DNA of 63,220 nucleotides, the filler included, from Stramenopiles sp. TOSAG23-6 (taxonomy: Eukaryota), in NCBI GenBank assembly GCA_900128565.1. It is 32 parts of 32 records of this genome, joined end to end, with 100 filler letters (N's around TTAATTAATTAA, not from the genome) between each part and the next. Parts side by side here need not be neighbours in the genome. Positions count along the whole stretch, not along the records: positions 1,997 to 3,891 come from LT638478.1; positions 3,992 to 5,885 come from LT638479.1; positions 5,986 to 7,878 come from LT638480.1; positions 7,979 to 9,871 come from LT638481.1; positions 9,972 to 11,864 come from LT638482.1; positions 11,965 to 13,856 come from LT638483.1; positions 13,957 to 15,847 come from LT638484.1; positions 15,948 to 17,837 come from LT638485.1; 24 more parts are not named here. One strand, given 5' to 3'. A program made the position numbers and the translations under genes. Numbering within the stretch: the first letter of the stretch is position 1; each line of letters opens with the position of its first letter. Shown here piece after piece: positions 1,997 through 63,212 of this stretch. The notes under the pieces are model-generated. The model did not search any database. It saw only the letters and a list, made by a program, of their open reading frames with translations, and was not told the origin of the DNA.

Positions 1997-2049
1997 TACG
2001 AAATTTTGTACCTAACGATTTNTTTTTGAAATATTTTTCCAAAATAAAT

Positions 2050-3891
2050 GGGGTAACGGCAATCCAATGTGGATCAATAAATGGGTTAAACCATCCAACC
2101 AGGATTTCAGGAATATTTTCTATTTACAACCTGTTGATAAAGACACCATCAAATTTGGTGTGTATACGACTGATAATAATGCTGTTGAGGCTGATATTTC
2201 ATCTTTGAAAATAAATGAATGGCACCACTACTGTGGCGTTTATGATGGTTCAAAAATGAGATTGTACGTTGATGGTCAAAAAAAAGGCGAAGAAAATGTT
2301 TCAGGAGTAATCTTTAACCAAGGAATAGAGGAAACAAATCACTTGGGAATATCATTTTGTAATGCTGATACCAACAATGATGATGATTCGGATAGCTTCA
2401 TTAAAAAATATGGGTGCTATGAAGGATTTTTATCTGACGTTCGAGTTTATAAGGATCCTTTGTCAGAGACTGAAATAAATAATATATCTACATCAGAACT
2501 CCAAAATCAGAGCGATGTTACTCTGACGATTACATTTCCGAAGGCTCGTAATATCAGGGAAGTGAGGGTGCGCCCAGTTGGTAGGTCTGGTAATACTAAT
2601 GGCAATGCCTTTAAAATTCAGTTGGGCGACGAGTACACATCCAACACTGAAAGAAAAGGTAGTGAAAACCTTGGCTACGTATGGTCGAAAAAATTTAACG
2701 AAGTGGTAAATGTTGAAACAATCACCGTCACAGTGTTGTCAGTGGGAACATATGGTCCAATATTGGAGGAGCTGATGATATATGAAGGTGGTAGTGATGT
2801 TGTCTCGAGACGGCGTAGACTTCAAGAAGAAGACGATGAAACAGATCTTGTGTTAATAGACATGTCCTGTCCCAACAATGTTTTCAAGAGTAATACTAAT
2901 ACAAAATGTTGGGGTTATCCTAGTAATGACACAAAATACAACGTTTACTATTTCCCCTCTAAATCTGAATACGAGAATGGTTCCGAGGATGGTATCAAGG
3001 TGACACCTTCACCGAAAATAAAATGTTACTCAACTGCAACCTCAGGTACTTACGCTAATTGTGGTGCGCCTTTTTGGCATTTGGATATGCTTTTTGATCA
3101 ATCGGATCATTATGCAAATAGCTTTCCTAGTGGTTGGTATTTTACAATGGTTTATAATCATAGTACGAATCACGACTACAAATTTGAATTTAGTAGAACA
3201 TACTTTATTGGAAAGGTTAGGGTTTTAGGTTCCAAGTATGATAATAATGTAAAACCTAGTCTGTTGATTGGTAGTAAATCATGGATGAGTACCGAAGCTT
3301 TGTCCAAACTAAATGCTCCAAGTGGTTCTAAATACAGCTTCAAAAATGTATGGGACCAGGATATCAGTCCTCCCGAAGAAGTGGGCCCAAACATTCACGC
3401 AACTATAAGAATTACAGGATCACAACAAATTCAAGAAATTGAGTTCTGGGAGTATATCCCTGGTTTGAAAAAGATTGATTTATCGTGTCCCAATAATAAT
3501 TGTTATTCTAGTAATGTATATACAATTGAGGGTGTTGCTACAGCGGCTGTGACGAACTCTGCCGGATATCCCTACAATCGAGGAAGTTTAAATCCAGTTT
3601 TCGATGGTTCGGGTTATAAAGGTATCGATAATAAGTATGCAAGTCCCTATCCCTATTATCTCATGCTAGGTGTTACATCTGGTTATAGGCTCAATGTTAC
3701 GTTTCAATCTCCTCGAAATATACAGTACATCAAACTTTGGCCAAATGGGCTAAATACTCCTACAGGCATTTTTAGAATAGTAGCTGATGACGTTTATCAA
3801 TCAGATTGGATAAATATGTATACATATAGATATTGGCCAGCTCGGCAGTGGTCCAAAAGGTTTACTCCTCCGATTAGGATAACTAAAGTTT
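2050..3891 (+). CDS. Extracellular LamG/concanavalin-like plus beta-sandwich repeat protein, exon fragment, variant A
   Basis: NEWHHYCGVYDGSKMRLYVDG...EGFLSDVRVYKDPLSETEI LamG-3 motif and an RRRRLQ motif; begins after an intron-family 3' end (CCAAAATAAAT). Confidence 0.75.
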
Positions 3892-3993
3892 NNNNNNNNN
3901 NNNNNNNNNNNNNNNNNNNNNNNNNNNNNNNNNNNTTAATTAATTAANNNNNNNNNNNNNNNNNNNNNNNNNNNNNNNNNNNNNNNNNNNNGA

Positions 3994-4857: not shown

Positions 4858-5188
4858 ATTGATTAGGGTTAAAATACTGATGAATCAGAGAATTATCGTT
4901 AGGGATTTATTTGGTTTTTATACAATTACGCACATTTATAAAATAGTAATAATTGTAGCTAAGCCATTTTACTGGGCATTTTTTTTATTTTTATTTTTTA
5001 ATTGTCTGAAATGTCAGAAATGAATCTGACAGGCTTGATACCAACGATACCACATTCACATCCAGGAAGCTAATTATTCTTTTTCATTTATTATTCTTTA
5101 AAAAATTCTTTATAGTATAATCTCGGAATCCTTGGTAGATATTTACTTATGGTTCATAACATTTACAAAATCCTTGGTAGATATTTAC

Positions 5189-6081: not shown

Positions 6082-7362
6082 ATGACATGATGTCATTGCA
6101 ACAGATGTTACTGCATGAATATGTCCCTCTTTTTTATTCATTGTTCGAATATGTTTACCTTCGGATGTCGACCATAACATGACATGATGATCAACAGCAC
6201 CACTCAAAATCCATTCGCCACTTTTAGAGACAGCAAGTGCTGTAATTCGTGCAGAATGCATTTGAGGTAAACATTTCACACGCCATGCACCACTACATCC
6301 AGCACGACGCCCAGTACCAGCCAATTTACTCCATAATTCTACAGCATTGGCACTTCGACTCATTCCTGGAATTCGTCTTGCTGAGTCGAGACATTGTAAA
6401 GCTTCACCTACTTTAGTTGCATCTTTTAATCCAATACAATGATCATATTCTTTACATTGTAAAAATGTTTTTGCTGAACTGACCAACAAATGAAATCGAC
6501 GAGCCATGTATTGTGAAAAAATATTTTTTGTTTTTTGTTTTTTGTTTTTTGTTAGGTACGAAATTTTTATAAAAAAAAAATAAATTCGATTTTTTTGTAA
6601 AAAAAAAAAATAAAACGTACATGGAAATGGCTTCAACCCAACTAACAGCTTCATCAGATGTTTTTGTTTGAAGTTCATAATCTTTATTTCGTGCAGTACG
6701 AATGACCATTTTAGTTGTGGAATCTTCATGTTGTACTTCAATAATATCACTTAAATTAATTTCACCTTTAGGAACTTTTGTATGTTCTGAATCATAATAA
6801 GATAATTTTAGATCTGTAAGAATGAAAACCCGAGTTTTCCAATTTTTACGTAAATGGCCTTTTTTAGAAAGTGAACCCTTTTTTATAATTCCACGTCGCT
6901 CAACAAGAAATTCGTGTAACTGACGCAATGCACCTTCTAATTGTCCCTTTGCTGTGACTCGTCCAGCAATCCATGGATTATAAAAAAATATTTAAAAAAA
7001 AAATTTGAAAATTTGTTAGGTACAAAATTTCGTACGAAAAAAAAACAAAAAAAAAATAAAACGTACATGGATGCGATAACACTTGTTCAACAGTAAGTCT
7101 TCTCCTAGGTTCAAGGACTAATAATTTTCGTATTAAATCTTTCGCTTCTATACTGATTGAATCCCAATACGGAGAATCAAATCGATATTCGCATTCTTTT
7201 ATTTTACGAAATAAAATAGTTTGATTGTCGTGATGAAATGGTGGATATCCAGCAAGTAATATATAAGTAATGACACCAATACTCCACATATCTACAGATG
7301 CATCATAGGGTCGCCCAGTGAGGATTTCAGGAGCGACGTACCATGGTGATCCACAATCGGTC
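6082..7362 (-). CDS. CAMK-family kinase C-lobe + PH domain + WD40 protein; exons 7362-7067, 6972-6621, 6505-6082
   Basis: CGSPWYVAPE, DMWSIGVITYILLAGYPPF, VLSHP/WI; KKGSLSKKG..RKNWKTRVFIL PH domain; HSARITALAVS..ILSGAVDHHVMLW WD40; frames join on removing two GT-AT introns. Confidence 0.85.
6506..6620 (-). mobile_element. Introner-like GT-AT intron
   Basis: TCC AT|GTACGTTTT...CACAATACAT|G GCT; family core present; joins the PH and downstream exons in frame. Confidence 0.8.
6973..7066 (-). mobile_element. Introner-like GT-AT intron
   Basis: CCA T|GTACGTTTT...TAATCCAT|GG restores the kinase-terminal HPW motif. Confidence 0.85.
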
Positions 7363-7476
7363 ATGTATTTTGGAAAAATATTTGAAAAAAATCTAAAAAA
7401 ATTTCTTAGGTACAAAATTTCCTATAAAAAAAAAAAAAAATTCGATTTTTTTGTAAAAAAAAATAATAAAACATAC

Positions 7477-7832
7477 ATCCTTTTTCACTAAATATTTCTA
7501 CATATTTTTCAAGTTTTAAAGATAAAAAACTTGATTCTGTTGGAAATACTTCATAATCTGATATATTAGAAATATCAACATGTGTACATCGACTTTCATT
7601 TTTTATTGCAACATTGGCCTTCGCGTTGGTGTTAGGGTTAGGGTTGGCTACTCGTTTAAATCCACCCATATTTAATCTGCTTGTTGTTGCATGAGAGACA
7701 TCAGCTGGAAATGCGACATCATTTACAGTATTTTGTGATGCATTAGATCTTCTTCGAAGTTTACCAGTATTGTTAGGCTGTATCATTGTTGGATTTATTT
7801 GTTCCTTATGTACAAAAGTATTTGATACATTC
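7477..7832 (-). CDS. Exon ending in the start of a SAM-like domain; probably a different gene from the kinase
   Basis: FLSLKLEKYVEIFSEKG resembles SAM helices 1-2; bounded by family introns; phase incompatible with the next exon. Confidence 0.45.
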
Positions 7833-7978
7833 GATGTATTTTGGAAAAATATTTGAAAAAAAAAAAACTTAAATTTGTNNNNNNNNNNNNNNNNNNNNNN
7901 NNNNNNNNNNNNNNNNNNNNNNTTAATTAATTAANNNNNNNNNNNNNNNNNNNNNNNNNNNNNNNNNNNNNNNNNNNN

Positions 7979-11862: not shown

Positions 11863-12018
11863 TGNNNNNNNNNNNNNNNNNNNNNNNNNNNNNNNNNNNN
11901 NNNNNNNNTTAATTAATTAANNNNNNNNNNNNNNNNNNNNNNNNNNNNNNNNNNNNNNNNNNNNATTTTGTACCTAACAAATTTTAGTTTTTTTTTGAAA
12001 TATTTTTCCAAAATACAT

Positions 12019-12365: not shown

Positions 12366-12467
12366 GTATGTTTTATTTTTTTTCAAATTCGATTTTTTTT
12401 TTCGTACGTAATTTTGTACCTAACAAATTTAAGTTTTTTTTTTTTGAAATATTTTTCAAAAATAAAT

Positions 12468-14034: not shown

Positions 14035-15847
14035 TAAAGCTGTGAACAAAACTATAACAAAGAAAAGTCGCTCTATCGAGGATTCTACTACACAAAATTC
14101 AAATAAAGACATCAAAATAGACAAAATTGTCGATTCTTTTTTAGATTCTAATACTAAAAAAAATGACCCTAACCCTAGTAGCCCTAACCCTAATGACAAT
14201 AGTATGCATACATATAACAATCAAAGTACATCACTATTGAACAAACCAAATGGAGCCACTCCAAAAGACTTTTTGAAAATCCAAAATACATTAAAAAAAC
14301 AATCCCAAATGAAAAATTATTGCATTGCCATAGAATGTCCTTCATTAGACTTATTTCATCGTTCTTCAACAGAAACATCACAAAATGGTTATGCATCAAA
14401 GACAAATGCAATCCAAAAAGTAAAAATGAATAAAATACCAAATAAAAATGAATATAATCAACAAAATGTTTTGAGAAAAAAAGAATCTACTACATTGAAT
14501 TCTATAAAAAGTGTATCAAATAATAAGGAAGATATTTTTCATGATGCTTTTGGATGTCTTGTCATATTAAAAATGAGGTATAAAAATAATAGTCTCACAT
14601 CAAAGACATCTAAATCGTATTGGGAATATTTTGGAATGACAGAAGTTCATCGATTTACGGAATGTGATGAATATTCTCGAAGTATGTCAGAATGTAAATC
14701 TAGTCTGTCAAATACTTCAAAATTGTCGGGTAATATTTGTTTTAATGTTGTTAGATCACTTTGTTGTGATAAACCAAATGATGTAGAGTTGAGGTTTGAA
14801 TTATATTATGTGTCAACTTCAGCTATTTTTACCCCTAATCAACTATTACCCAGTGAAATGTACGCCACAACAACAACAACTTTAAGTAATTTGCTCTCAC
14901 ATTTGCCAAGCAAAATGTATGAAAGGTCTCAGTCATTAAGCCAGAGTCAATTTGTAAATTTAACACTGATGAAAAGTGGATTGGAAAAGATAGGTCATTT
15001 AAGTGTGAGTGTTGATGCTATTTTAGAAAACGCATCCGTTGCAGCACATGAGAGAAAAATGTATTGGTTTCCAAGGCAGTCATCCACAGAATGTCTGGAG
15101 ATAGAAAATGAAAAAAATATATACTTTTCTTCTGGAAAACAAAAAAAATATCAACGTCAATTTGTGATAGAAGATTTGAGTGAGTCTCCTTATACAACTG
15201 AAATACCGTGCCAGCTTTTACCTATATATATTAAAGATTTAAAACATGCATGTGTTGTTGCCGAAGAGCAGTTAATGTCATTTGAAAAATTGTACGCAAA
15301 ACGAAATTTAGGATTTTCACAGAGTGCATCAACTGGTGGAACACTTAATCAATCTGCTGCTGCCAGTAACTTTATAAGAAAATATGGTGACAGTGAGAGT
15401 CCTGCAGAATTTTCGAAGGATTCTCAACAAGTAAAACAGTCGACCGATGGATATCAAATAAATGAAGCGAAACAGCCATCGACTCTTGCATGGTATGAAA
15501 TAGTAGCTGGAACACTTCAAAGTGACGCAGAATTTGGCAAACAGCAGTACTGGTTACAACAAAGATTAGAAAAACGAAAAAAAAGATTACAGTTTACAGA
15601 GGATTGTTTTAGGTCATGTTTATTCTGGAGATCTGATAAGCTGCATTTTAAATCTAGCAGAGAAAAAAAAACACCCGAATTTTCATTTATGCCGACAAAT
15701 TTACATGTGCAGCGTATGTCAGTATTCTCAGGACATGTTGGTATGAAAAATGTCCCATTAAATGATTCAATTATGAGAGAATATGTAACACCAGACAGTA
15801 GATTTGTATCACAGGCTGAAGGTGTCTATAATATTGTAACTGTAGGG
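14035..15847 (+). CDS. Inositol polyphosphate 4-phosphatase (INPP4-like), N-terminal/central fragment
   Basis: C2-like region, then FKSSREKKTPEFSFMPTNLHVQRM...YNIVTVG matching INPP4 FK.S..K....LEFVPTNLHIQRM...YDIVTIG. Confidence 0.75.
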
Positions 15848-15994: not shown

Positions 15995-16584
15995 ATACTT
16001 GTAAGAAAACTACACATAAAAACATTCCAACACTACATCTTGTTATATCACCTTCTGGAATCATAGCTAAGCCACCAGTCATTGAATGTGTGAAATTATT
16101 TAAAAAATTTTGAAAACGTTTGTTAGGTACAAAATTTCGTACGAAAAAAAAATTTCAAAAAAAAAAAATGAAATTCATGAGGAGGACATACATTACACAT
16201 TTTCTCAACATTTCAACTAATTCATAATACCAATATTTATGTTTGTACGCTGTAAACAATGAACCATATTTCAATTGTGCTGATTGATATTTTTGGTTAT
16301 TATATATATGCCCTAACCCTAATACTCGTAACTGCAATGGTGCAATTAAATAATGTATTTTGGAAAAATATTTCAAAATTTTCTTAAAAAAAATATTTTG
16401 TTAGGTACGAAATTTCGTACGAAAAAAAAATTCAAATTTTCAAAATAATAAAACATACATGACGTTGTCTGTATAAAATAATGAAATACAACAATGGTAT
16501 TCCAATCACATATATTACAATACCACTACTAGCAACAAACGCTAGTGTATTCCACTCATCATTACCACAAATAATATTTGGGTC
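15995..16584 (-). CDS. Multi-pass membrane region; exons 16584-16459, 16352-16192, 16080-~15995
   Basis: IVIYVIGIPLLYF, YGSLFTAYKHKYWYYELVEMLRK motif typical of protist ectodomain-TM proteins; GT-AT introns 16353-16458 and 16081-16191 restore the frame. Confidence 0.7.
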
Positions 16585-16700
16585 ATGTAGTACAAAACAA
16601 TATTTCAAATTTTTTTTTTTAGTTTCAAAAAAAAAAAAAAAATTTGTTAGGTACAAAATTTCGTACGAAAAAAAAATTTAAAAAAAAAAATAAAAGATAC

Positions 16701-17705: not shown

Positions 17706-17992
17706 TATGTGTTGTGAAAAATATTTTGTTTTTTTGTTTTTTTGTTTTTTAAAGTGTTTTGTTAGGTATATATTTTCGTACGAAAAAAAAAAAATTACAA
17801 AAAAAAAAAAAAAATTAAAAAAAAAAAAAAAAAACAANNNNNNNNNNNNNNNNNNNNNNNNNNNNNNNNNNNNNNNNNNNNTTAATTAATTAANNNNNNN
17901 NNNNNNNNNNNNNNNNNNNNNNNNNNNNNNNNNNNNNTGTACCTAACAATTTTTTTTAGATTTTTTTTTTGAAATATTTTTCCAAAATACAT

Positions 17993-18501
17993 ACAGCTCA
18001 TAATTTAAAACAGAAAATGCAGTCTAGTGGAAATACAAGGTCAACAGAATTATTACAACAAAGTTTGTACAAAGAATGTTTGAATACATGTATTGGTTCA
18101 TCATCTTTTACGTTGCCATACGGCTTAAATGTTGGATGCATTCTTCCTGATCAATGTAGGGTCATGTATGTTTTCGTCATTAGGGTTAGGGTTAGGATCA
18201 TTCATTTTTTTTATCCTACACAATTCCGTACCTAACGATGTTTTTCTAAAATATTTTTTCACAATACATGGGATCAGCTGCAGCCCCATTATGGTTAACT
18301 TTTTTAGCTCAAGAAAAAGAGCCTCATGATGATGATTCATCAATAAATAATTCAAAAACAATGAATCTACTACAAAATGATTTAAACAATAGCAAATCAT
18401 TTTCTAGTAGTATTCAAGACTTGGGTGATGCATCAGTGATTAGAGCAGCAAAAGCATCTGCGTCGCGAAGAAGTACTCTAAACTCGAGTGGATATAGACA
18501 T
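17993..18501 (+). CDS. PI3-kinase-like fragment (start of catalytic domain); exons 17993-18165, 18270-18501
   Basis: Spliced ILPDQCRV-M-GSAAAPLWLTF matches the PI3K motif ECRIMSSAKRPLWL. Confidence 0.65.
18166..18269 (+). mobile_element. Introner-like GT-AT intron containing TTAGGG repeats
   Basis: GTC AT|GTATGTTTT...GTACCTAAC...CACAATACAT|G GGA. Confidence 0.8.
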
Positions 18502-18906: not shown

Positions 18907-19719
<813 letters not shown>

Positions 19720-19784: not shown

Positions 19785-19970
19785 CTTTGGGAAAAAATTT
19801 TACCAAAAAAAAAAAAAAAAAAAAAAANNNNNNNNNNNNNNNNNNNNNNNNNNNNNNNNNNNNNNNNNNNNTTAATTAATTAANNNNNNNNNNNNNNNNN
19901 NNNNNNNNNNNNNNNNNNNNNNNNNNNACGAATTTTAAGTTTTTTTTTCAAATATTTTTCAAAAATACAT

Positions 19971-23101: not shown

Positions 23102-23743
23102 TTAAACAGCATGTCCTGTCCTATTTTCTGATATAAAATTTTCATCATTACCATCATACACGGGAACATGTATTGTGAAAAAAAAATATTACTTTTGAAA
23201 TTCGTTAGGTACAAAATTTCGTATGAAAAAAAAATAAAAATAAATTTTCATACTAAAAAAACGTACATATGGAGGTTCCTCTTCTTCTTCNAGGTTTTCA
23301 TCAGTAGTAACCCCTACAACATTATCAAATATAACATTACCAGCTGTTTCAAGAAAACTTTCTTTTGGTACACAGCATTTCTTATTTGGCCAAAAGTTGT
23401 ATGTATTTTTGAAAAATATTTCAAAAAAAATCCAAAAATATGTTAGGTACAAAATTTCGTACGAAAAAAAATCGATTTTTTTGTTAAGAAAAAAATAAAA
23501 CATACATTCACCAAGAAGAGCCATTGTACATGGAATAATCATTTTCGTAGTAATAAAACAATCGATAAGAATTCCAATGATGAGTAGAAAAGCAATTTCA
23601 TTCAGCGTCGGTGTTGCAGATACTAACAGAGAAAAAAATGCAACAACCATAACAATTCCAGCAGCACTAATGATGTTTGCAGTTTGGCTTATTGCCTTAA
23701 TAGTTGCATCTCTAATAGACGAACCACACCTGATTTCTTCAGC
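23102..23743 (-). CDS. MMPL/RND-family membrane protein, 3' exons 23743-23506, 23400-23267, 23167-23102
   Basis: AISQTANIISAAGIVMVVAFFSL...GILIDCFI...IIPCTMALLGEYNFWP; GT-AT introns 23401-23505 and 23168-23266. Confidence 0.8.
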
Positions 23744-23900: not shown

Positions 23901-24690
23901 GCTATCGATGTTCTTCAATCCATATTCTTCGCAATTAATGTACTTTGCATTTTTCAGAAAAAACAATTGACTCATTTCTAACGAAGTCACAAAATCCGCA
24001 TATTTTCGTCTCGTAGGCTCAACATACATTCCTGACTGTATAATATTTAAGGCATTAGCGACTATTATAGAAACATGCTCAAGTGGAAGTTTCTCTGATT
24101 TATTCGCTTTCGGGAAGCAAAACTTAAAAATTGAAGCTAAACTTTGGTTGGTCTCAAGACCTAATTTTGTAACACCAACTTGAGCTTTTAAATTTTCATA
24201 TTGAACCAAATGACCAAGCATCAGTACTGAGTAGTGGCACACATGCATCCTTTTCAGGTGGGGGATTTCTGATTGCTTGCATAGTGGTAGTTGTTGATTT
24301 TGAAAGTGACACCTCGAATAGAAGTCTAACGGTAATGTCCCCCCGTTTCACAATCCCCTGAGAGTTAGGGTCCCCTGACAGTTTAGCGGAATTTGTTATA
24401 TCAATACGAATTTGTGTATCTCCAAAATCCGTGTTTACTCGGAATATATTGCTATACTTTATATCAAGATTTAAAATATTGTATCCATGCATACACTTCA
24501 ATCCTTCAGCAATGCTTGGCAAGTGACTTAATCGCTCTGATATATTTAAATTGTTCAAAGTACCCAGAGGAAAGTATTCAGTAGCTATTACATGTACATT
24601 CACTACGTTGTCATACGTAATTCTACGTTCTTTCTTGTCATATAAGCCAACAACGTTGGGACAATCGACTGTTTTCAATATTGAATAAAC
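23901..24690 (-). pseudogene. Degenerate protein kinase-like sequence, frameshifted
   Basis: IATEYFPLGTL...IAEGLKCMHGYNILNLDIKYSNIF and DAWSFG motifs; split across frames with no clean N-terminus. Confidence 0.5.
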
Positions 24691-38770: not shown

Positions 38771-39614
38771 ATGTCTAAAGGACGATTTTCGGCCTTTTCT
38801 TTTTTCGTAGCACGTAATGCTGCTTTAGCAGCTGGTGTCGCAACGTCTATGAGATATTTCGTAGGTGATAGCTTATGTCAACGGTACGAAAACCAAGTAA
38901 AGCGACATCATACAAAAGATAGTACTATTTCAACACACACACACGCAACGAACACAATGACAACCACAGTGTCCAAAACTAAACTATTGGAATGGTGGAA
39001 CCCATTTCGCACAAGTATATTTGCTACGTTTGGTATGGTGTACGGAATTGGTCCTGGTTATTTCTGGTATAACAAGGTTTTACCTCGTTTCTTCAAAGGA
39101 ATACCTCTACGTGCTGCAATATTTGATGTATTAGTGCAATGTCCTGCAATATATTTCCCTTTATTTTATATAACCAAGAGTACATTTGAACATTTTGATG
39201 ATGAAAGCTTTTTTGACCAACAATGGAATACAAGTCCTAACCCTAACCCTAACCCTAACCAGAAAAATGGGCTTACTTTGATACAATCTGCCTTATCCAA
39301 CTACCAGAACAATATAGTAAAAGATATGCAAGCTTTAATGTATGTTTTATTTTTTTTTCATCATGAATTTATTAATTTATTTTTTTTTTGAATTTTAAAT
39401 ATTTTTTTTCGTACGAAATTCTGTACCTAACAATTTTTTTTCAATTTTTTTTTTAAATATTTTTCCATACTACATAACATTTTGGTTACCTTGTCATTAT
39501 ATAAATTTCAGGTTTGTGCCAATTCATTTTCGCATGCCTTTCATGGGAATCGTTGGCGTTGCTTGGGTCTTCATTTTGAGTCGTATAAGAGGAGGAGGTG
39601 GTGTTTTAGATTAG
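38771..39614 (+). CDS. Mpv17/PMP22 family membrane protein; exons 38771-39339, 39476-39614
   Basis: GDSLCQ, RT..FATFG, spliced ALI-TFWLPCHYINFRFVPIHFRMPFMGIVGVAWVFILS. Confidence 0.88.
39340..39475 (+). mobile_element. Introner-like GT-AT intron
   Basis: TTA AT|GTATGTTTT...CCATACTACAT|A ACA TTT TGG restores the Mpv17 C-terminal motif. Confidence 0.85.
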
Positions 39615-41868: not shown

Positions 41869-42837
41869 GTAGATGACGTCATAATCCCAAATATGTCAAA
41901 AGTGTGTCGAACTCCAGGATTTCGACATCATGGGTCAAAGAATTCTCCATGGAACCCGGTAACATCAAATAATGACGGAATTTTTTTAACCAAGAAAAAT
42001 TTTCGTCAAAACTTTGTGGATACTTCAAACCCTAACCCTACTTCAAACCCTAACCACCCTGATTTGGACGTGAATGTTATTTCAAATATTGTGAAATATA
42101 ATGAAAAGAATATAAACAATGTAATTCCGTCTCATCATCATCAACAAAATATTGGAAATGTAGCTAACCCTAACCCTAATGTAGCTTTGTCTAATGTACT
42201 TAACTATGCTAATTTGTATACAAAAACGCCGTCGCCATCACCACAAAAATCGCAAAGTTCTGAAATAAAATTCAATACAAATACAAATGAAGAAGGGAAA
42301 GATAAAGATAAGGAAAATTTTGGTTTTGCAAAAAATACAAAAAAACAAATTTTTTTTGAAAAAAACAAATTTGAAAAACAATTGACTTGTAATACGGTGG
42401 ATGATGTTGATGCTTCTACACCAAAAATACCAAAAATACCAAAAATACCAAAAAATGAAAATTGTTCAGCAGATCATATTTCAACTGAAATTGTAGACAA
42501 ACAAAAAATGAAAAATGAAAATTCAATACCAAATGGATTTGATGAGTCAACAACAAAATTGTTGATTTCGTGTAATAATAGTACTGTCGATGACGTCACT
42601 CAGCAAAGTAGTTTGGAAAAACAAAACTCTATTTCGAATATACAAAATATTGATAACAGTCAAATTAAAAATAATGAAATAATTGAGACTACTCAAAACC
42701 CTAACCCTAATAAATGTACTGTTGTACACTGTGATACGATGGAGACTGCTTCATTAGTAGATGATACTACACGAAATACAGAAAATACACAAAATACACA
42801 AAATATTTTTGTAAATTTTATGAATAATTCGATGTAG
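41869..42837 (+). CDS. Asn-rich low-complexity terminal exon
   Basis: Long ORF after a family intron end. Confidence 0.5.
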   Translation, partial: VDDVIIPNMSKVCRTPGFRHHGSKNSPWNPVTSNNDGIFLTKKNFRQNFVDTSNPNPTSNPNHPDLDVNVISNIVKYNEKNINNVIPSHHHQQNIGNVANPNPNVALSNVLNYANLYTKTPSPSPQKSQSSEIKFNTNTNEEGKDKDKENFGFAKNTKKQIFFEKNKFEKQLTCNTVDDVDASTPKIPKIPKIPKNENCSADHISTEIVDKQKMKNENSIPNGFDESTTKLLISCNNSTVDDVTQQSSLEKQNSISNIQNIDNSQIKNNEIIETTQNPNPNKCTVVHCDTMETASLVDDTTRNTENTQNTQNIFVNFMNNSM

Positions 42838-43667: not shown

Positions 43668-43936
43668 AAAAAATTTTAAAAATTTTTTTTTTTTTTTTGG
43701 TAGAAAAAAAAAAATTTTTAGGTAAAAAATTTCGTATAAAAAAAAAAAAAAAAAAAAAAATCAGAATTTTACTATGAAAGAAACATACTATAGCTGATAA
43801 TGCACATGATGCATACAACATTGAATCTTCTGCTGCTGTTAATGCAATAAATGCAGCAGGCGCAGATGCCCATGCTTTGGTTGCATTAGATCTCCTCTTA
43901 CATAACAAAATAGTCTATTGTGTTGAAAAAATATTT

Positions 43937-43977
<41 letters not shown>

Positions 43978-44560
43978 TAAAAATTTTTTTAAAAAAAAAA
44001 TTTTTTTTTTTTTTTTTTTTTTCGTACAAAATTTTTTTCCTAAAAATTTTTTTTTTTTTTTACTAACCAAAAAAAAAAAAAATTTTGAAATATTTTTCCA
44101 AAATACATATGATAAGGAACGAACAATGAAAGTTTTACTCCGTACTCTACAAGATCCTCCACCGTCACTAAAGACGTATGAAGAATATGTAGGTTTTCTT
44201 TTTTAATACGAAATTTTGTACCTAAACCTAAAAAAAAAATTTAAAAAAAAAAAAAATATTTTTTCAAACTACATGGAGACACTGGAAAAAAACCCAAAGA
44301 TTTTAAAAAAGCGTTTAAAGATTTTTACAGCGTTTGTTTAATCAAAGATCCAAAAAAGAGACCTACAGCTTCGAAATTACTTTCAAAACCATTTCTTACT
44401 AAATTAACAGTTAAAACAGGTCATTTGGAATCTCTTGTGACATTGTTGCCTTCAGTTGGTATGTTTTTAGTGTCTAAAAAAAAAATTCAAAAAAAACATT
44501 TCATACGAAATTTTGTACCTAACAAAAAAACATTCAAAAAAAAATTCAAATTTTTTTTTT

Positions 44561-44642
<82 letters not shown>

Positions 44643-45225
44643 AAAAAAAAAATTTGAATTTTTTTTTGAATGTTTTTTTGTTAGGTACAAAATTTCGTAT
44701 GAAATGTTTTTTTTGAATTTTTTTTTTAGACACTAAAAACATACCAACTGAAGGCAACAATGTCACAAGAGATTCCAAATGACCTGTTTTAACTGTTAAT
44801 TTAGTAAGAAATGGTTTTGAAAGTAATTTCGAAGCTGTAGGTCTCTTTTTTGGATCTTTGATTAAACAAACGCTGTAAAAATCTTTAAACGCTTTTTTAA
44901 AATCTTTGGGTTTTTTTCCAGTGTCTCCATGTAGTTTGAAAAAATATTTTTTTTTTTTTTAAATTTTTTTTTTAGGTTTAGGTACAAAATTTCGTATTAA
45001 AAAAGAAAACCTACATATTCTTCATACGTCTTTAGTGACGGTGGAGGATCTTGTAGAGTACGGAGTAAAACTTTCATTGTTCGTTCCTTATCATATGTAT
45101 TTTGGAAAAATATTTCAAAATTTTTTTTTTTTTTGGTTAGTAAAAAAAAAAAAAAATTTTTAGGAAAAAAATTTTGTACGAAAAAAAAAAAAAAAAAAAA
45201 AATTTTTTTTTTAAAAAAATTTTTA

Positions 45226-45266
<41 letters not shown>

Positions 45267-45535
45267 AAATATTTTTTCAACACAATAGACTATTTTGTTA
45301 TGTAAGAGGAGATCTAATGCAACCAAAGCATGGGCATCTGCGCCTGCTGCATTTATTGCATTAACAGCAGCAGAAGATTCAATGTTGTATGCATCATGTG
45401 CATTATCAGCTATAGTATGTTTCTTTCATAGTAAAATTCTGATTTTTTTTTTTTTTTTTTTTTTTATACGAAATTTTTTACCTAAAAATTTTTTTTTTTC
45501 TACCAAAAAAAAAAAAAAAATTTTTAAAATTTTTT
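43668..45535. repeat. Whole-contig perfect inverted repeat centred at 44601/44602 (likely artefact)
   Basis: The second half is the exact reverse complement of the first; mirrored ORFs are identical. Confidence 0.95.
44109..44458 (+). CDS. OSR1/SPAK-like STE20 kinase C-lobe; exons 44109-44188, 44275-44458 (mirrored at 44745-45094)
   Basis: MKVLLRTLQDPPPSL...FKDFYSVCLIKDPKKRPTASKLLSKPF; GT-AT intron 44189-44274. Confidence 0.8.
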
Positions 45536-49574: not shown

Positions 49575-49607
<33 letters not shown>

Positions 49608-49848
49608 TACGAAACTTTATACCTAACGATTTTTATCATGATTTCGTGTTTTTTTTCACAAAACATGGCAGCAATGCGTGCGTTCTGGAAACCGTCAGAG
49701 CCAATATCTATCAAGTTGAAAGCTTTGTATTCATTATTTGCAGGTGATGATGACATGGTTGGTTTAGCAGAATTATTTAGTATATGTAGGTTTTTTTTTT
49801 TTTTTTTAAAAATTTTTTTTTTTTTTTTTTTTTAAAAAAAATTTTTTC

Positions 49849-49892
<44 letters not shown>

Positions 49893-49900
49893 CAATACAT

Positions 49901-50233
49901 GATCAAAACAAGAATGCAAGGGTTGGAAGCATCAAAATATTCAAGTATTGTTGATTGTTTCAAAAAAGTATTGAATGATGAAGGTCCCGCAGCTTTCTAC
50001 AAAGGAGTCGGTGCCCGCTTAAGTCGTGTTGTCCCAGGTCAAGGAATAATCTTTATGTATGTTTTATATGAATTTCTAATTTAATTTTTTTTTTTTTGGT
50101 TTTTTGGTTTTTTTTTTTCATACGAAATTTTGTACCTAACAAATTTTTTTAGATTTTTTTTTGAAATATTTTTTCACAATACATGTCATATGAATCAATT
50201 TCAAATTTCTATGAAAGCAGGTTAGGAGTATAA
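49901..50233 (+). CDS. Mitochondrial tricarboxylate/citrate carrier (SLC25A1-like), last exons 49901-50056, 50185-50233
   Basis: IKTRMQGLEASKY...EG..AFYKG..RL.RV.PGQGIIF-M-SYE; GT-AT intron 50057-50184. Confidence 0.85.
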
Positions 50234-50375: not shown

Positions 50376-51310
50376 TTAATCAAAATCGGAATCTGAATCT
50401 GATAAAATTTCCACTTCAAATTTAGTTTCTTCATTTTTGTTTTGTTGTGTAACTGAAGAATCCCAAGGAAAAGTTAAGTCAACATTATCATCATTATCAT
50501 TCATATTACCATTGACATTATTTGTATTATTAATAGTATTAGTATTATTAATAGTATTATTAATAGTATTAGTATTATCAATAGTATTAGTATTATTAAT
50601 AGTATTAGTATTATTAATAGTATTAGTATTATTAATAGTATTATCAATAGTATTAGTATTATTAATAGTAGTACCATCATCAGAATGTACAAAACTGTCT
50701 GAATCATCAGAATCGTTTAAATCGTTTAATTCCATTTCAGACAATTTTTCAAATTCTTGATTCATTGACGAGGTATTCTTATTATGATAATGAATAACTT
50801 CACCAATCGCGGAGTCATCGACAAAAATATCCCCATGAAATAAACATTTTGGAAAAATATTTGAGAAAAAAAAATCGTTAGGTACAAAATTTTCAAAAAA
50901 AAAAAAATTTGAAAAAAAATTTGAAAAAAAATAAAACATACAAAAATTTAGGAAGAGAGTCTCTCATATCAATCATAATATCTTGTAAATCCAAATAATA
51001 CTTATGTGGTATAATACCACCAGCTGCAAATGCTCTATTAATTGCACTTGCTTTCTCATCTTCAGTAATTCCACCATGTATTTTGGAAAAATATTTCAAA
51101 AAATCTAAAAAAATTGTTAGGTACAAAATTTCGTACGAAAAAAAAATTCAATTTCAAATTTAAAAAAAAAAAAAAAACATACATCTTCTTCCATCCATTG
51201 AATCTGTTTTAAACCTAGTTTCACATCACGCATCCATTGTGTACGGAGTCTACATCGACCAATATGAGGCATAAAACGACATATATCTTCCCAATCATAT
51301 CCGATGGTAC
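50376..51310 (-). CDS. Uncharacterised protein, last exons 51310-51183, 51075-50942, 50841-50376
   Basis: In-frame joins across family introns 51076-51182 (GT-AT) and 50842-50941 (GT-TT); NTINNT repeats. Confidence 0.55.
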
Positions 51311-51624
51311 ATGTATTTTGGAAAAAGTATTTCAAAAAAAAAACAAATTTGTTAGGTACAAAATTTCCTACAAAATTTCCTACAAAAAAAAAAAAATTCA
51401 ATTTTTTTGTAAAAAAAAAATAAAAACATCCCTACCCCNNNNNNNNNNNNNNNNNNNNNNNNNNNNNNNNNNNNNNNNNNNNTTAATTAATTAANNNNNN
51501 NNNNNNNNNNNNNNNNNNNNNNNNNNNNNNNNNNNNNNAAAAAATCTAAAAAAATTTGTTAGGTACAAAATTTCGTACGAAAAAAAAATTCAATTTCAAA
51601 ATTCAATAAAAAAATAAAACATAC

Positions 51625-52431
51625 ATGACCATCGTTTAACTCCTTAAACCATTTTCGAACGTCTGTTACAGTAGGTAAAGTTTCGTTTTTTATAAATGTA
51701 TGAAATTTCAAATCATCTTTTGAACATTTTGAACGATTTACTTTGTCATTTTTATACTTATTAGTCATTACTTTTAACTTGTCATTTTTATACTTTTCAG
51801 TCATTACTTTTGACTTTGAAAGAGACAATTCAAGTTGGTAACCACGACCATATATTGTTTTCAAATGCTGTGTGCTACCTAAACAACACAAATGACCATC
51901 AACCATAATTCCAGTTCTTGTACATAAAGCTTCACATTCCTCCATTGAATGTGTAGTAAGAATTACTGCACAATTTTTGTCTTCTATGGATATTTGATTA
52001 ATAATATTCCACATTTTTCTTCGTGACAATGGATCCATACCTGTTGATGGTTCGTCTAGAAATACAATCTTTGGATTTCCTAGAGTTGCAATAGCAACTG
52101 ATAATTTTCGTTTATTTCCACCAGAATACGTNCCTGCCATATTATCACAATCATGTAATAAATCTAATTTCACTATTTTGGCTTGAACTGCTTCATCAAT
52201 TAAATGTTTAGGAATTCCTTTTAATTTTGCATAAAAATTTAAATGTTCCCGACCTGTTAATTTTTCAAATAACGCATCAAATTGAGGACAGTAACCAATC
52301 AATTTTCGTGCTTCTGTGAGATTTTCATGAATTGAATATCCGGCTAGAAATCCATGACCTGAAGTAGGACGAATATCACCAGAAAGAATTTTAATCGTTG
52401 TTGTTTTACCAGCCATACATTGTGAAACATA

Positions 52432-52464
<33 letters not shown>

Positions 52465-53351
52465 TTGAAAAAAAAAAAAAAAAAAAAAAATTTTAATTTT
52501 TTAAAAAAAAAAAAAAAAAAAAAATTTTAAATTTTTAAAAAAAAAAAAAAAATAAAAACGTACCCATTCACTCCTAAAAGTCCAAAACATTCACCTTTAG
52601 GAATCCCAAGTGAAAAATCACTGACAGCAATTTTTGGTCCTTGAGACGTTTTATATATTTTACGGACATTTTCAAGTATAATAATATCATTCATTTTGTT
52701 TGCTTCTCCACTTGAAACACGAAATCTCTCTGTTTTTACATCCTCGTCTTCAAATGTATTCGTTTGTTTTGAGTGTTGTAAAGGACCAATATTTTTTCCA
52801 CTACTATTATTGGATATTGTTGGATCTCTCAAACAAGGAAAAAGTCTCAGTTGTATATCTTTATTATAATCAAGCCATTCTATAAAAAATACAAGAACTG
52901 AATGTATTTTGGAAAAATATTTCAAAATTTTTTTTTTTTCGTAAAAAAAAAAAAAAAAAATTGTTAGGTACAAATTTTTTTTTTTCGTAAAAAAAAAGAA
53001 AAAAATTCAATTTTTTTGTTAAAAAAAAAAATAAAACATTCATAAATGATTACATGAGAAGCTAAACAAAGACAATCTGTTCCTGCAATTTGCATATCCA
53101 ATGGTGAGAGTTCAACACCGAGACCACCAATAAAGAATGAAATTAATTCTTTCAATGTTATATTCATCAATGCTTTAGAAAAACAAAATGGAGGAAAAAT
53201 ACGAAATATCCAACGCAATTTCAATCCTAAATCTTTTGTTCCGAGTAAATCAGTTAAATCCCATAAAATAAAATCAGTAATTAACATTAAAATAGAGCAG
53301 ATAAAACAAAGCACCAACATGGCAACTTGTGCAGTTCCATATCGTTGAAAT
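51625..53351 (-). CDS. ABCA-subfamily transporter, second TMD/NBD; exons 53351-53042, 52901-52564, 52414-51625
   Basis: [26 protein letters not shown] Walker [48 protein letters not shown]. Confidence 0.95.
52415..52563 (-). mobile_element. GT-AT intron splitting Walker A
   Basis: AAT GG|GTACGTTTT...CACAATGTAT|G GCT GGT AAA is the only GT-donor register giving GVNGAGKT. Confidence 0.88.
52902..53041 (-). mobile_element. Introner-like GA-AT intron
   Basis: ATT TAT|GAATGTTTT...CCAAAATACAT|TCA GTT gives [12 protein letters not shown]. Confidence 0.75.
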
Positions 53352-55545: not shown

Positions 55546-55577
<32 letters not shown>

Positions 55578-55582
55578 CATAC

Positions 55583-55822
55583 AATATATTTAACCACTAA
55601 TTCATGTCTATGCAAAAAACGTGTTACAATTCCAGGAATCCGAAAGATATAATGAAGATCTGTAAATACTGACGTGAATCGTTGATGCGTGATGGCTCTA
55701 TTCAATAATAATCCAGTACCGGGATCTTCAGTTCTGTATTGTGAAGAAACACGAAAAAAAAAAAAAAAACGTTAGGTACAAAATTTCGTACGAAAAAAAA
55801 AATTTGGAATTTGAAAAAAAAA

Positions 55823-55855
<33 letters not shown>

Positions 55856-57152
55856 ATACATTCGAACACTAGCTCTTCCTTTCACACCTGGTGACATTGA
55901 AACAAATATTTTATATAGTGAATGTATAACGACTGATAACAAGTCGATGTTATTAGGGTTAGGGTTAGACACATTTTCAGAACGACTAGGGTTAGGGTTA
56001 GAAAGACTTTTGACTACTGATGGAACTGTAAATAGTTGAACTGTCATTTGTATTTTGGAACAATATTTCAAAATTTTCTATAAAAAAAAATTGTTAGGTA
56101 CAAAAATTTTTTACCAAAAGAAAAAAAAATAAATTCGAAATTAAAAAAATATATATAAAAAAAATTGTTAGGTACAAAATTTCCTATGAAAAAAAAAATA
56201 TAAATTCGAAATTGAAAAAAAAAATAAAATCATACATTGGACGCAGCACCAACATCTTCCGTACCAACACCAACAAAATATTGATGACTAACATATTCGT
56301 AATGATAAGCTAATGACAATGCAACGGCTCTTTTAAATTTGGGTAAGATTACTGGATTATGAAAAAATATCAAAATAAAATAAAGTTTGGTAAAACATAT
56401 TTTCAAATATATTTTCAAAAAAAAAAAAAATCAAAAAAAAAAAATTCATAAATTCATAAATTCATAATGAAAAAAAAAAACATACAAATTTTTGAAAAAA
56501 GAGACGTAGTCAGTGACGTCATTTGTTTTGGAAGTAAAGCACCTGATGATAGTAACGTCCCAATTGCATGTTTTGAGTTTTTCCGCACATCTAATCTTGG
56601 TGAAAGTTGATAAATTGTGTCATTTACACCACGTGATGAAGAGACATTTAATCCATTAGGGTTAGGGTTTACATAGGCAGGAAAAAGAATTCCGTCATTT
56701 TCTATTTCATCATCTTCATCTTGAAGACCAATCATATCATGAAAAAATTCAGGATCATTCATTTGTTCAACAATATCATTAAAATTATTAGCATCAAAAT
56801 CAAAATATTCCTCATCCACATCATCAAAATCAGCATCATCAATATATTCGTCATCAACCTCAACATCATCATCGTCAATATATTCGTCATCATCAACATC
56901 ATCATCATCATCATCATCATCAACAGCATCATTCATATTAATATATTCATCCTCAAAAATATCAGGGGGAAGATCATCAACATATTTATCAACATAATCA
57001 TCACCATCATCAATCATTGCATTTGAAGTAACACTAGGGTTAGGGTTATTTGAAGTAACACTAGGGTTAGGGGTTTCTGTATTTGAGTATTCTTCATTAT
57101 TATATTCATTATAACGATTCATTAAGTCCTCCAAATCATTTGAACTATCCAT
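55583..57152 (-). CDS. UBR1/PRT6-like N-degron E3 ligase fragment; introns 56352-56485 (GT-AG), 56048-56235 (GT-AA), 55734-55859 (GT-AG)
   Basis: FKRAVALSL..HY...MTVQLFTVPSV...LLSVVI...RFTSVFTDLHYI matches UBR1 (YKKLFA..F..YY...SVQMFTVPTL...RV..VICDLKYI). Confidence 0.75.
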
Positions 57153-59021: not shown

Positions 59022-59397
59022 GTACGTTTTCAGTATGAATTTCAATTTTTTCAATTTTTTTTTTCGTACGAAATTTCGTACCTAACAAATTTCGAATTTA
59101 ATTTTTTTCACAATACATGAACGTATACAAAGACTTTCTAAAGGACACCTTTGTTTATCGACATCTCTCGCTTTTTGCTTTGTCGCATGTCGTTTAAATT
59201 TTGAACCTGTACGTTTTTTTTTTTTTATTGAATTTTTTTTTTTTTTTTCATACGAAATGTTGTACCTAAGAATTGAATTTTTTTTTTTTTTTTTTTNNNN
59301 NNNNNNNNNNNNNNNNNNNNNNNNNNNNNNNNNNNNNNNNTTAATTAATTAANNNNNNNNNNNNNNNNNNNNNNNNNNNNNNNNNNNNNNNNNNNNA

Positions 59398-61041: not shown

Positions 61042-62368
61042 TTTGAAATTTGAAGCATTTGGTAAGTAGTGTAGTAATTAGAAGGAGGATTTTTTATTGC
61101 TTATCAACATTTAAAAAAAATTGAAAAAAAATCAAAAAATTTTGAAATTTTTTGAATTTTTTTTTGTTCTTTGGAGGTCATAGTACTGTTTATTGCTTCT
61201 ATGTGGGATGGGTGGTATTGGGATGGGTTTTTATTGGTATGTGATTTTATTAAGTTTTNNNNNNNNNNNNNNNNNNNNNNNNNNNNNNNNNNNNNNNNNN
61301 NNTTAATTAATTAANNNNNNNNNNNNNNNNNNNNNNNNNNNNNNNNNNNNNNNNNNNNTCAAAAAAAATTCTAAAAAATTTGTTAGGTACAAAATTTCGT
61401 ACGAAAAAAAAAATCGATTTTTTTTTTTACCGTAAAAAAAAAAAATAAAACAGACATGAAGGTAGTTCACCGTATTGTACTTGTTGAATTGCGTATATAC
61501 ATAATTCACAATATCCATGTTCACCTGAATTTTTTGCTTGTACGGACATTTTAACTTTTTGTTCCATTTTTGTACTTAATTTTGTAGTTATTTTTGAAGC
61601 CATCTCTACAAAGGATATTGGCATTGTATGTTGATTTGATGTGTTCTTTGAATACAAAGGATCGATATTATACTTATTATACATCTTCGACATGATTTCG
61701 TTCGGTCCTCTCTGTCTTTTGATTTGGCGTTCGGTGTCGTTTTTATCAAACATGTTTGAGAAAGGAATGAAAGGAGTAACGTGGAATCCGCCGCCGCTCC
61801 CCATGGTGTGAGTAAAACATGAACAAAGCCACACCGTTAAGAAACAAGAAAATTGTGTACAGTACATTCCTTGATATATATACTATGCTTGCTGAATGAT
61901 AACGTCAGTGTTTCATATATATATATATATCAATAGGGTTTAAATTGGGTTTATTTGTAATATAGAGTTTACAATATTTGTTTTTGTTCAACAGATCGAC
62001 GACGAGAAAAAAGAAGAACAAACAAAAAAAACCAACCAACAATCAAAGTATAAAGGAATAATTTTCAAAAAAAAAAAAAAAATTCTTCGATTCCAAAACA
62101 CGAAATCTGATCATTTTGTTATAACGGTAGATTTTTTTTTTTGGTGTTTTTTTTTGGTGTTTTTTCAGCAATCGATCTTTTTTAAGTTTAACTGTTACAT
62201 CTGAATGCTCTACTGAAACTAAATAGCAGCACTTTCAGATGATATAACTATTAGTAATAATAAAGTAAAGTAGAATATAGCACGATTAATTACTCGGATG
62301 AATGACATACATCATACACCGAAGAAAAAGACACAGTAAAGAATGTGTCTTGAATAGATCCTTACACA

Positions 62369-63212
62369 ATGTCTAAAGGACGATTTTCGGCCTTTTCTTT
62401 TTTCGTAGCACGTAATGCTGCTTTAGCAGCTGGTGTCGCAACGTCTATGAGATATTTCGTAGGTGATAGCTTATGTCAACGGTACGAAAACCAAGTAAAG
62501 CGACATCATACAAAAGATAGTACTATTTCAACACACACACACGCAACGAACACAATGACAACCACAGTGTCCAAAACTAAACTATTGGAATGGTGGAACC
62601 CATTTCGCACAAGTATATTTGCTACGTTTGGTATGGTGTACGGAATTGGTCCTGGTTATTTCTGGTATAACAAGGTTTTACCTCGTTTCTTCAAAGGAAT
62701 ACCTCTACGTGCTGCAATATTTGATGTATTAGTGCAATGTCCTGCAATATATTTCCCTTTATTTTATATAACCAAGAGTACATTTGAACATTTTGATGAT
62801 GAAAGCTTTTTTGACCAACAATGGAATACAAGTCCTAACCCTAACCCTAACCCTAACCAGAAAAATGGGCTTACTTTGATACAATCTGCCTTATCCAACT
62901 ACCAGAACAATATAGTAAAAGATATGCAAGCTTTAATGTATGTTTTATTTTTTTTTCATCATGAATTTATTAATTTATTTTTTTTTTGAATTTTAAATAT
63001 TTTTTTTCGTACGAAATTCTGTACCTAACAATTTTTTTTCAATTTTTTTTTTAAATATTTTTCCATACTACATAACATTTTGGTTACCTTGTCATTATAT
63101 AAATTTCAGGTTTGTGCCAATTCATTTTCGCATGCCTTTCATGGGAATCGTTGGCGTTGCTTGGGTCTTCATTTTGAGTCGTATAAGAGGAGGAGGTGGT
63201 GTTTTAGATTAG
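62369..63212 (+). CDS. Mpv17/PMP22 protein, duplicate copy; intron 62938-63073
   Basis: Identical to 38771-39614. Confidence 0.85.

Follow-up and report, generated by a model that had tools for sequence, protein, structure and literature searches.

An introner-like family of introns with apparent GT...AT borders in Stramenopiles sp. TOSAG23-6

The window analysed here is a stretch of 63,220 bases from Stramenopiles sp. TOSAG23-6 (GenBank assembly GCA_900128565.1). It consists of 32 contigs of 1.86–1.90 kb that are sorted by falling length and do not represent one locus; the contigs are joined by linkers of the form N44-TTAATTAATTAA-N44 (e.g. 1897–1996). Essentially all introns in the window share the same ends and form one repeated family, and alignments of the encoded proteins place the borders of these introns at GT...AT. 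The reading that we consider best, with a probability of roughly 0.65, is that the family is introner-like, that most of its members descend from one short repeated element, and that they are spliced as GT...AT. An earlier examination of the DNA (the sequence-only reading) had recognized the family but missed that its introns end in AT rather than AG, which is the more unusual feature.

Results

A repeated intron family

Approximately 55 copies of the family are present in the window, including partial copies at contig ends and copies that lack the core, and about 45–50 remain when duplicated contigs are left out. The 26-nt core TTTTCGTACGAAATTTTGTACCTAAC has 35 matches at up to 3 mismatches, with 0 expected in the window, and a box of 20–26 nt is identical in 12 copies. 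The 20-nt core, at up to 4 mismatches, has 56 matches, some of which come from duplicated contigs, and a few of which are opposite-strand self-matches of a 12-nt palindrome, TTTCGTACGAAA, located directly upstream of a branch-like box. The 19-nt 3' block ATATTTTTCCAAAATACAT is found 29 times (0.33 expected) and the 5' block GTATGTTTTATTTTT 105 times (24 expected). No match to the 20-nt core was found in a collection of viral contigs.

Twenty full copies can be aligned end to end, and the sequence beyond the element is unrelated between copies. The alignment reproduces the architecture that had been described before: in short form, GTATGTTTT(A)T-run, a variable A/T tract, TTTCGTACGAAATTTTGTACCTAAC, a T-run and GAAATATTTTTCCAAAATACAT; in full, AT|GTATGTTTTATTTTTTTT, a variable A/T tract, TTTTTTTTTCGTACGAAATTTTGTACCTAAC, a T-run and GAAATATTTTT(C)CA(A/C)AATACAT|G. 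The sequence GTACCTAA is invariant across the 20 copies. In the aligned copies, a conserved CCTAAC box is located at a distance of 32–61 nt from the 3' end (120 nt in the long ALDH intron 19026–19188). The 3' block of many copies contains TTTGA, approximately 21 nt from the 3' end. Two family introns, 49786–49900 and 52415–52563, lack the core box. In some introns (56048–56235, 51311–51431 and 28535–28660) the branch-box module (..AAATTTTGTACCTAAC..) is tandemly doubled.

Intron lengths range from 86 nt (44189–44274) to 188 nt (56048–56235), within the 85–190 nt originally estimated. The 19 distinct copies with clear flanking open reading frames (ORFs) are distributed over phases 0, 1 and 2 as 6, 5 and 8, and every copy with identifiable flanking ORFs is in the sense orientation. 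The host genes are unrelated and encode a LamG lectin, Myb, leucine-rich repeat (LRR) and Sel1/MYND proteins, PP2A-A, ALDH, ABCA, a mitochondrial carrier and a kinase. The claim of some 50 sense copies, in all three phases and in unrelated genes, thus holds.

Similarity within the family extends beyond the signal blocks. A subfamily formed by copies 6506, 7363, 23401, 52902 and the partial copy 37750 has (A)ACAAAAAAAT(C/T)GA in common, and TTTTTTTAGATTTTTT, also outside the signal blocks, is common to several copies. Copies 51076–51182 and 51539–51624, which reside in different genes, are approximately 94% alike, with 4 base differences and 1 indel over 86 columns.

Protein alignments place the intron ends at AT

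Borders were located by exon-by-exon alignment to the solved structures of PP2A-A, ALDH9/BADH and ABCA proteins, and four junctions (PP2A-A, two in ALDH, and ABCA) are exact with respect to these structures. Exon 1 of the PP2A-A gene (279 aa) extends to residue 236, and exon 2 starts from residue 237, of 9j5i_D. At this junction alone, a GT-AG intron of equal length shifted by +4 nt is also possible, and the junction therefore cannot discriminate between the readings. Exons A, B and C of ALDH9/BADH correspond to residues 337–385, 387–455 and 457–491 of 6vr6_A, with only two split codons between them. In ABCA, exon 2 extends to residue 1948 and exon 3 starts from residue 1950 of 7tbw_A, with the split Walker A glycine (GVNG|AGKTT) between them. 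Removal of the intron from the mitochondrial carrier gene gives the C-terminus ..GQGIIFMSYE... A canonical GT(GC)-AG 3' end is absent from most copies, and the AT end is verified at the ALDH and ABCA junctions. Judged at the protein level, the piece that has to be removed to restore the conserved proteins is GT...AT.

The frames of the flanking exons were analysed under the rule GT..(A/C/T)A(T/G/A), with the donor set before GTATGT and some of the counts made by hand. The rule keeps 14 of the 19 distinct copies with clear ORFs in frame, with the acceptor directly after ..ACAT or after ..ACAG, ..ATAT, ..AAAT or ..ACAA, and three more copies (50057, 59022 and 52415) fit by manual check.

The same borders emerge from the alignment of full copies. 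Of the 20 copies, 16 close with AT and 2 with AG (AT or AG in 18), and 19 keep the 5' GT. The two AG copies, 36967–37056 and 55734–55859, have AG exactly where the others have AT. The sequence-only reading had given the end as TAC-NN; the two bases are in fact AT, and the intron ends after them. Before the final dinucleotide, several copies have other bases in place of AC (CC at 6973, AT at 19404, AA at 12467). The upstream exon ends in AT in 18 of the 20 copies, so that the cut can often be slid to AT...AC; at 52415–52563 the ABCA exon ends in GG, and only GT..AT or TA..TG are possible. We infer that the family is spliced as RNA.

Other borders were considered and rejected. TG..CA ends, and target-site duplications (TSDs) of 3 or 4 nt (ATG, ATGT), are disallowed by the ABCA intron and by the intron whose exon ends in CT, and the downstream GT is unconserved. 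The elements are not bounded by TA, as internal eliminated sequences would be, and the use of an internal canonical AG (TTTAG) as acceptor leads to stop codons and lost motifs.

The individual copies are as follows (coordinates, strand, description, evidence).
6506–6620, minus: full family intron of the ACAAAAAAATCGA-tract subfamily; sequence read, 5' and 3' block matches
6973–7066, minus: full family intron, GTACGT...ATCCAT; alignment, flanking frames fit
7363–7476, minus: full family intron in the kinase gene; flanking frames off by 1 from the GT..AT rule, upstream exon not alignable
12366–12467, plus: full family intron, end ..ATAAAT; core match, alignment
16086–16191, minus: full family intron; core match, alignment
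16353–16458, minus: full family intron, phase 0; core match, frames, alignment, fold
16585–16700, minus: full family intron, GTATCT..; alignment, frames off the GT..AT rule
18166–18269, plus: full family intron with a telomere-like TTAGGG run inside; core match, alignment
19026–19188, minus: ALDH9/BADH intron, GTAGGT...ATACAT, phase 1; exon B to 455 and exon C from 457 of 6vr6_A
19404–19567, minus: ALDH9/BADH intron, GTATGT...ATATAT, phase 2; exon A to 385 and exon B from 387 of 6vr6_A
23168–23266, minus: full family intron; core match, alignment
23401–23505, minus: full family intron, ACAAAAAAATCGA subfamily; core match, alignment, pairwise comparison
29154–29266, minus: full family intron, divergent 3' end, frames unclear; core match, alignment
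34334–34428, minus: PP2A-A intron, phase 0, length verified; residues 236 and 237 of 9j5i_D meet at the junction
36073–36166, minus: full family intron; core match, alignment, fold
36967–37056, minus: family intron with canonical ends, ..aag|GTATGT...ATACAG|; core match, frames, alignment
39340–39475, plus: full family intron, frames unclear, duplicate at 62938–63073; core and 3' block match, alignment
44189–44274, plus: shortest full copy, inverted duplicate at 44929–45014; core and 3' block match, alignment
49786–49900, plus: intron-like stretch that has family ends and no core; the exons on either side do not fit each other, perhaps owing to a chimeric join
50057–50184, plus: mitochondrial carrier intron, removal gives ..GQGIIFMSYESISNFYESRLGV*; exon translation, alignment
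51076–51182, minus: full family intron, phase 0, about 94% like 51539–51624; alignment, pairwise comparison
51539–51624, minus: partial family intron at a contig end, ABCA gene; core and 5' block match
52415–52563, minus: ABCA intron in Walker A, GTACGT...AATGTAT, core box absent, exon end ..AATGG; 7tbw_A residues 1948/1950
52902–53041, minus: family intron, 5' end GAATGT; core match, frames, alignment
55734–55859, minus: family intron, end ..ATACAG (AG), upstream exon ends in AT; core match, alignment
56048–56235, minus: longest copy, branch-box module doubled, end ..ATACAA; core match, frames
59022–59118, plus: family intron, upstream exon ends in CT; core match, alignment
1997–2049, plus: partial copy at a contig start; core and 3' block match
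7834–7878, 12000–12018, 17974–17992, 19952–19970: other partial copies at contig ends
23744–23800, 47604–47674, 49572–49660, 53350–53404: further partial copies at contig ends

Abundance in seawater

Seawater metagenomes and metatranscriptomes contain the window sequence at high identity, and the organism is accordingly taken to be a marine protist, probably a heterotrophic stramenopile. Sequences were recruited to one 1.87-kb contig from the seawater DNA runs X3 and X5 and from the RNA runs X7 and X8 (one seawater sample); repeats were masked, many bins had no cover, cover was very thin, and DNA may contaminate the RNA libraries. The numbers of contig pieces recruited were 3170 (X3), 1346 (X5), 498 (X7) and 451 (X8). 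Almost all of them fall on intron bins, with summed depths of 10^3 to 6x10^4 as opposed to 3–55 on unique exons, the exception being a low-complexity exon repeat at 50580–50642. In X3, 74 contigs part from the window sequence just after 50184–50186, at the end of the intron, which indicates that these copies come from different loci and that very many loci carry the element in nature. On this contig, with its thin cover and masked repeats, no intron-less DNA joint was found in X3 or X5.

Origin of the family

The PP2A-A intron position was compared with orthologues as a test of recent gain, and it is absent from both distant relatives compared. One of them (L001, 52% identical) has no intron at all, and in the other, which is intron-rich (L003, 63% identical), an exon spans the site. 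A metagenome scan with the PP2A-A exon returned only 3 relatives, all distant (42–63% identity). The subfamilies, the pair of copies that are approximately 94% alike, the high copy number in nature and the PP2A-A position together support spread by copying, and the family appears to have arisen in this way. An introner-like origin is well supported, also by the unrelated host genes and the use of all three phases.

The sequence-only reading had gone further and proposed a burst of intron gain by an element resembling a miniature inverted-repeat transposable element (MITE), with imperfect inverted repeats at its ends. The high-copy, introner-like family stands, and the inverted ends exist; they measure only 6–9 nt, however, and overlap the splice signals (ATGTAT/ATACAT plus T4/A4, i.e. 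GTAT(G)TTTT versus AAAATAC). The proposed MITE mechanism finds no counterpart in a covarying TSD or, among the 10 largest ORFs of the window, in a transposase. AT is the consensus on both sides of the intron and covaries in one of the five introns that depart from it: exon and intron ends match only at 36967–37056 (AG/AG), with mismatches at 55734, 56048, 59022 and 52415. The inverted ends tip the balance slightly towards copying by a DNA transposon, with spread through RNA (reverse splicing) as the alternative.

Several observations weigh against the introner-like reading with GT..AT splicing. The five departures from AT, with their one match, yield no convincing TSD, and no transposase domain, which the sequence-only reading had proposed to look for, is encoded in the 10 largest ORFs of the window. 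The comparison of positions, proposed at the same time, covers one gene and two distant relatives. The strongest conservation falls on the expected splice-signal blocks, as selection on signals predicts. The intron ends pair in 5 of 6 RNA folds, but fold energies are near those of shuffled sequence (z −0.3 to −2.5), and we claim no selected structure. On the single contig used for recruitment, with its very thin cover, no intron-skipping joint is seen in X7 or X8, and X7 records 16 and 23 are colinear with the genome across intron borders, i.e. unspliced. Finally, five of the 19 copies break the frame rule. These misfits are assumed to reflect draft errors or chimeric joins, because a frameshift-like break is visible in contig 13: at 24196–24347, a kinase-like gene continues in two overlapping frames (..DAWSFGSI* / ..LVQYENL..), which suggests a 1-nt draft error and bears on introns with non-fitting frames.

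Alternative explanations

The alternative that survives best, although we consider it unlikely, is a divergent minor (U12-like) spliceosome that tolerates GT-AT ends, a case that would resemble the proposed mass gain of U12-type introns with inverted-repeat ends in Physarum. GT-AT introns can be spliced by U12-type machinery, and rare GT-AT U12-type introns are listed in the part of PMC1557818 available to us. The available part of the Physarum preprint (bioRxiv 10.1101/2020.10.12.336362) gives U12-type introns of the form rtatctt...aagATAT, with a TA direct repeat and a TTTGA branch motif, and GT-AT makes up 17% of those U12-type ends that are non-canonical there. The start GTATGTT of the present family is one base from the Physarum gtatctt, and the TTTGA of many 3' blocks matches that branch motif. 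Against this explanation, no family copy begins with RTATCCTT, the U12-type 5' splice site, the copies beginning instead with GTATGTTT, and TTCCTTRAY, the U12-type branch motif, occurs at chance level in the window; we rank the U12 explanation low because the family lacks these two motifs. RTATCCTTT is found 7 times in the window (1.6 expected), at 11125, 25588, 29587, 36181, 38001, 59884 and 61610, and never at a family intron. The sites at 11125, 36181 and 59884 are antisense to genes by their coordinates, the duplicate pair 38001/61610 lies in a continuous ORF, and the excess is probably due to chance plus duplication. U12 branch sites are usually located 10–15 nt from the 3' end, and both CCTAAC (at 32 nt or more) and TTTGA (at approximately 21 nt) lie farther away here. 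GTATGT, CTAAC and a T-tract constitute the classical major-type set, and their presence points to the major spliceosome. An Rfam scan of the window at the gathering threshold matched no family and hence no small nuclear RNA (snRNA).

Slightly less probable still is the explanation, also raised in the sequence-only reading, that the introns are old and unrelated and that the shared blocks are extended splice signals, selected or homogenised by a spliceosome that needs long matches. Columns without variation are those of the 5' splice site, the branch-like box and the 3' block; the lengths of the intervening stretches vary widely, and the common ends extend to the core-less copies. This part of the proposal stands: the best-conserved blocks are signal blocks. 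It does not account for the subfamily variants in non-signal parts, for the nearly identical pair in different genes, or for the box of 20–26 nt that is identical in 12 copies and recurs in 35 with at most 3 mismatches; to our knowledge, such a box far exceeds any known snRNA contact. The one intron position compared, in PP2A-A, is also not shared with either orthologue.

Two explanations that concern the borders alone are very improbable, and to a similar degree. The first is that the true ends are AT...AC, the cut being slid 2 nt to the left, with the same mRNA wherever the upstream exon ends in AT. AT-AC is the well-known alternative terminal pair, AT is indeed the exon end upstream of 18 of the 20 copies, and ..ATAC-AT is the intron end in most of them. 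Such a cut is impossible at 52415–52563, where the exon ends in GG, and at 59022–59118, where it ends in CT, and AC is replaced in several copies while GT and the final AT or AG are kept.

The second is that canonical GT-AG sites nearby are used and that part of the 3' block is coding. Two database gene models, from the same or a nearly identical organism, are built in this way: P0124, which is 100% identical to the ALDH exon, and P0003, which is 94% identical to the PP2A-A exon (window 18910–19716 and 33803–35265), where the equal-length shift of +4 nt is available. The GT-AG sites of P0124 lie inside the element, and their use damages the protein. SSFLQY replaces the conserved ..CTDEMT-I.., with loss of the DxM motif, and 8 extra residues (CRHIFHNT) are inserted into the P-W-G-G motif, where solved ALDHs have exactly one residue. 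In P0003, VF stands in place of the GV produced by the GT..AT junction, and parts of an uninterrupted exon are skipped. Moreover, in several copies, such as 36073–36166 and 23401–23505, AG does not occur anywhere from the branch box to the 3' end, and the use of TTTAG creates a stop codon in 51076–51182 and destroys the carrier C-terminus at 50057–50184. Both models missed the intron class.

The least probable explanation, that the elements are amplification or assembly artefacts or DNA that is excised from the genome rather than RNA introns, draws on the inverted chimeras and breaks at the repeat in the assembly and on the lack of spliced RNA on the thinly covered contig, but it is opposed by the many different flanks of the element in both the DNA runs (X3, X5) and the RNA runs (X7, X8), and by a complete set of spliceosomal signals that lies only in the sense orientation and between exons.

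Composition of the window

GC content is 22–39% in 31 of the 32 contigs. The remaining one, contig 14 (25886–27769), has 47% GC and a JmjC/cupin ORF and carries no family intron; on these grounds it may come from a different organism. Three pairs of contigs are duplicated (c2 and c17; c20 and c32; c23 as the reverse complement of c24), and c23 contains an internal inverted copy (43717–45486). Many contigs end inside the intron element (e.g. at 1997, 7878, 12000, 17974, 23800, 47604, 49572, 51438, 51539 and 53404); the repeat therefore breaks up the assembly, and it may have given rise to chimeric joins.

Telomere-like (CCCTAA)2 14-mers occur 25 times (0 expected in the window), at sites that include 7632–7645, 14180–14193, 39239–39258, 42166–42179, 42697–42710, 55953–55999 and 56656–56669. 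Many are within coding exons, where they are read as N-P-N-P, and one lies within a family intron (18180–18193). They look like a second, separate insertion-like phenomenon.

Discussion

If the introner-like reading is correct, each copy of the element would bring GTATGT and a T-run after it as a yeast-like 5' splice site, next a small hairpin (GUACGA...UUGUAC) adjoining a branch-site-like box (CCTAAC), and then a T-tract and the conserved 3' block ending in ...TTTTCCAAAATACAT. The piece removed would have the G of GTATGT as its first base and the T of ..ACAT as its last, with AT as the 3' splice site and AG in approximately one-tenth of the copies. AUGUAU, formed by the last two exon bases and the start of the intron, could pair with the last six intron bases, AUACAU, an interaction that would juxtapose the two cut sites.

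A wider proposition, for which we see about even odds, is that this is a free-living marine protist lineage in which the majority of introns are GT...AT, tens of thousands of them made by one AT-ended introner family. Its spliceosome would do without a G at the last intron base, and would perhaps place the 3' cut via the conserved 3' block together with pairing of the intron end to the 5' exon end. In that case the gene models now available for the lineage, which assume GT-AG, would contain systematic errors, and intron-poor-looking models with damaged motifs in uncultured lineages would find an explanation; both models analysed here show such damage. Introns of this kind would escape gene finders and introner surveys limited to GT-AG. 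Bursts of intron gain are at present best explained by introners, and the families compared so far use ordinary splice sites, as far as the available parts of the sources go. If such a family supplied most introns of an abundant ocean protist, it would show that a mobile element is able to carry a whole genome into non-canonical splicing, and would provide a natural system in which to study the choice of a 3' splice site in the absence of AG.

A literature search found no paper in which 'introner' is connected with GT-AT, and none of the papers listed in a further search joins introners with MAST-3, MAST-4, Picozoa or single-amplified genomes (SAGs). Among the papers listed for stramenopiles none describes such introns, mostly as far as titles and the openings of abstracts show, and genome papers searched for 'intron' describe no such class. 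What is new is that an introner-like family has AT at its 3' ends and makes up most of the intron set; introners themselves are already known.

The diversity of introner TSDs and terminal inverted repeats (TIRs), and the co-option of splice sites, are described by Gozashti et al. 2022 (PMC9860276, available in part). According to that part, the introners of Micromonas, Aureococcus, Symbiodinium, Chrysochromulina and other organisms are, like the present family, short, high in copy number and AT-richer than exons, and create introns in unrelated genes. One or both splice sites are part of the element, marine protists are frequent hosts, and some families have TIRs and/or TSDs. Their 5' ends are GT or, more rarely, GC or GA, their TSDs, where present, measure 3–9 bp, and none is described there as ending in AT. 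By contrast, the family in TOSAG23-6 has AT at the 3' end of most copies and no covarying TSD, and seems to constitute nearly all introns of the window.

Amoebophrya (Farhat et al. 2021, PMC7789003, in the portion available) is likewise a marine protist with non-canonical intron ends, a MITE-like interpretation and no internal transposase. Inverted repeats of 8–20 nt join the 5' and 3' ends of its introns, and short direct repeats span the borders. Unlike the present case, the same portion describes many families, with no dominant terminal dinucleotides or standard signals, whereas here a single family combines uniform GT..AT ends with a standard 5' site, a branch box and a T-tract.

The rare GT-AT introns of animals (Sheth et al. 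2006, PMC1557818, as available in part) show the same terminal pair and include both U2-type (DGCR2) and U12-type examples. They are isolated among hundreds of thousands of introns and, unlike those of TOSAG23-6, form neither a repeated family nor a majority. Tunicate genomes that escape the GT/AG rule offer a parallel at the scale of the genome, with non-canonical splicing that needs a changed U2AF and changed snRNAs, and the discussion of the tunicate paper, in its available part, ties such splicing to introner transposons with weak splice sites. The tunicates are an animal lineage, and that part describes no single conserved repeat family.

Physarum polycephalum resembles TOSAG23-6 in its mass gain of introns, inverted-repeat ends, 2-nt direct repeat, acceptance of GT-AT and the proposal of a transposon (bioRxiv 10.1101/2020.10.12.336362, in the part available). 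The Physarum introns differ in having U12-type 5' and branch motifs near the 3' end, with GT-AT in the minority. The motifs of the TOSAG23-6 family have a major-type appearance, and GT-AT ends predominate.

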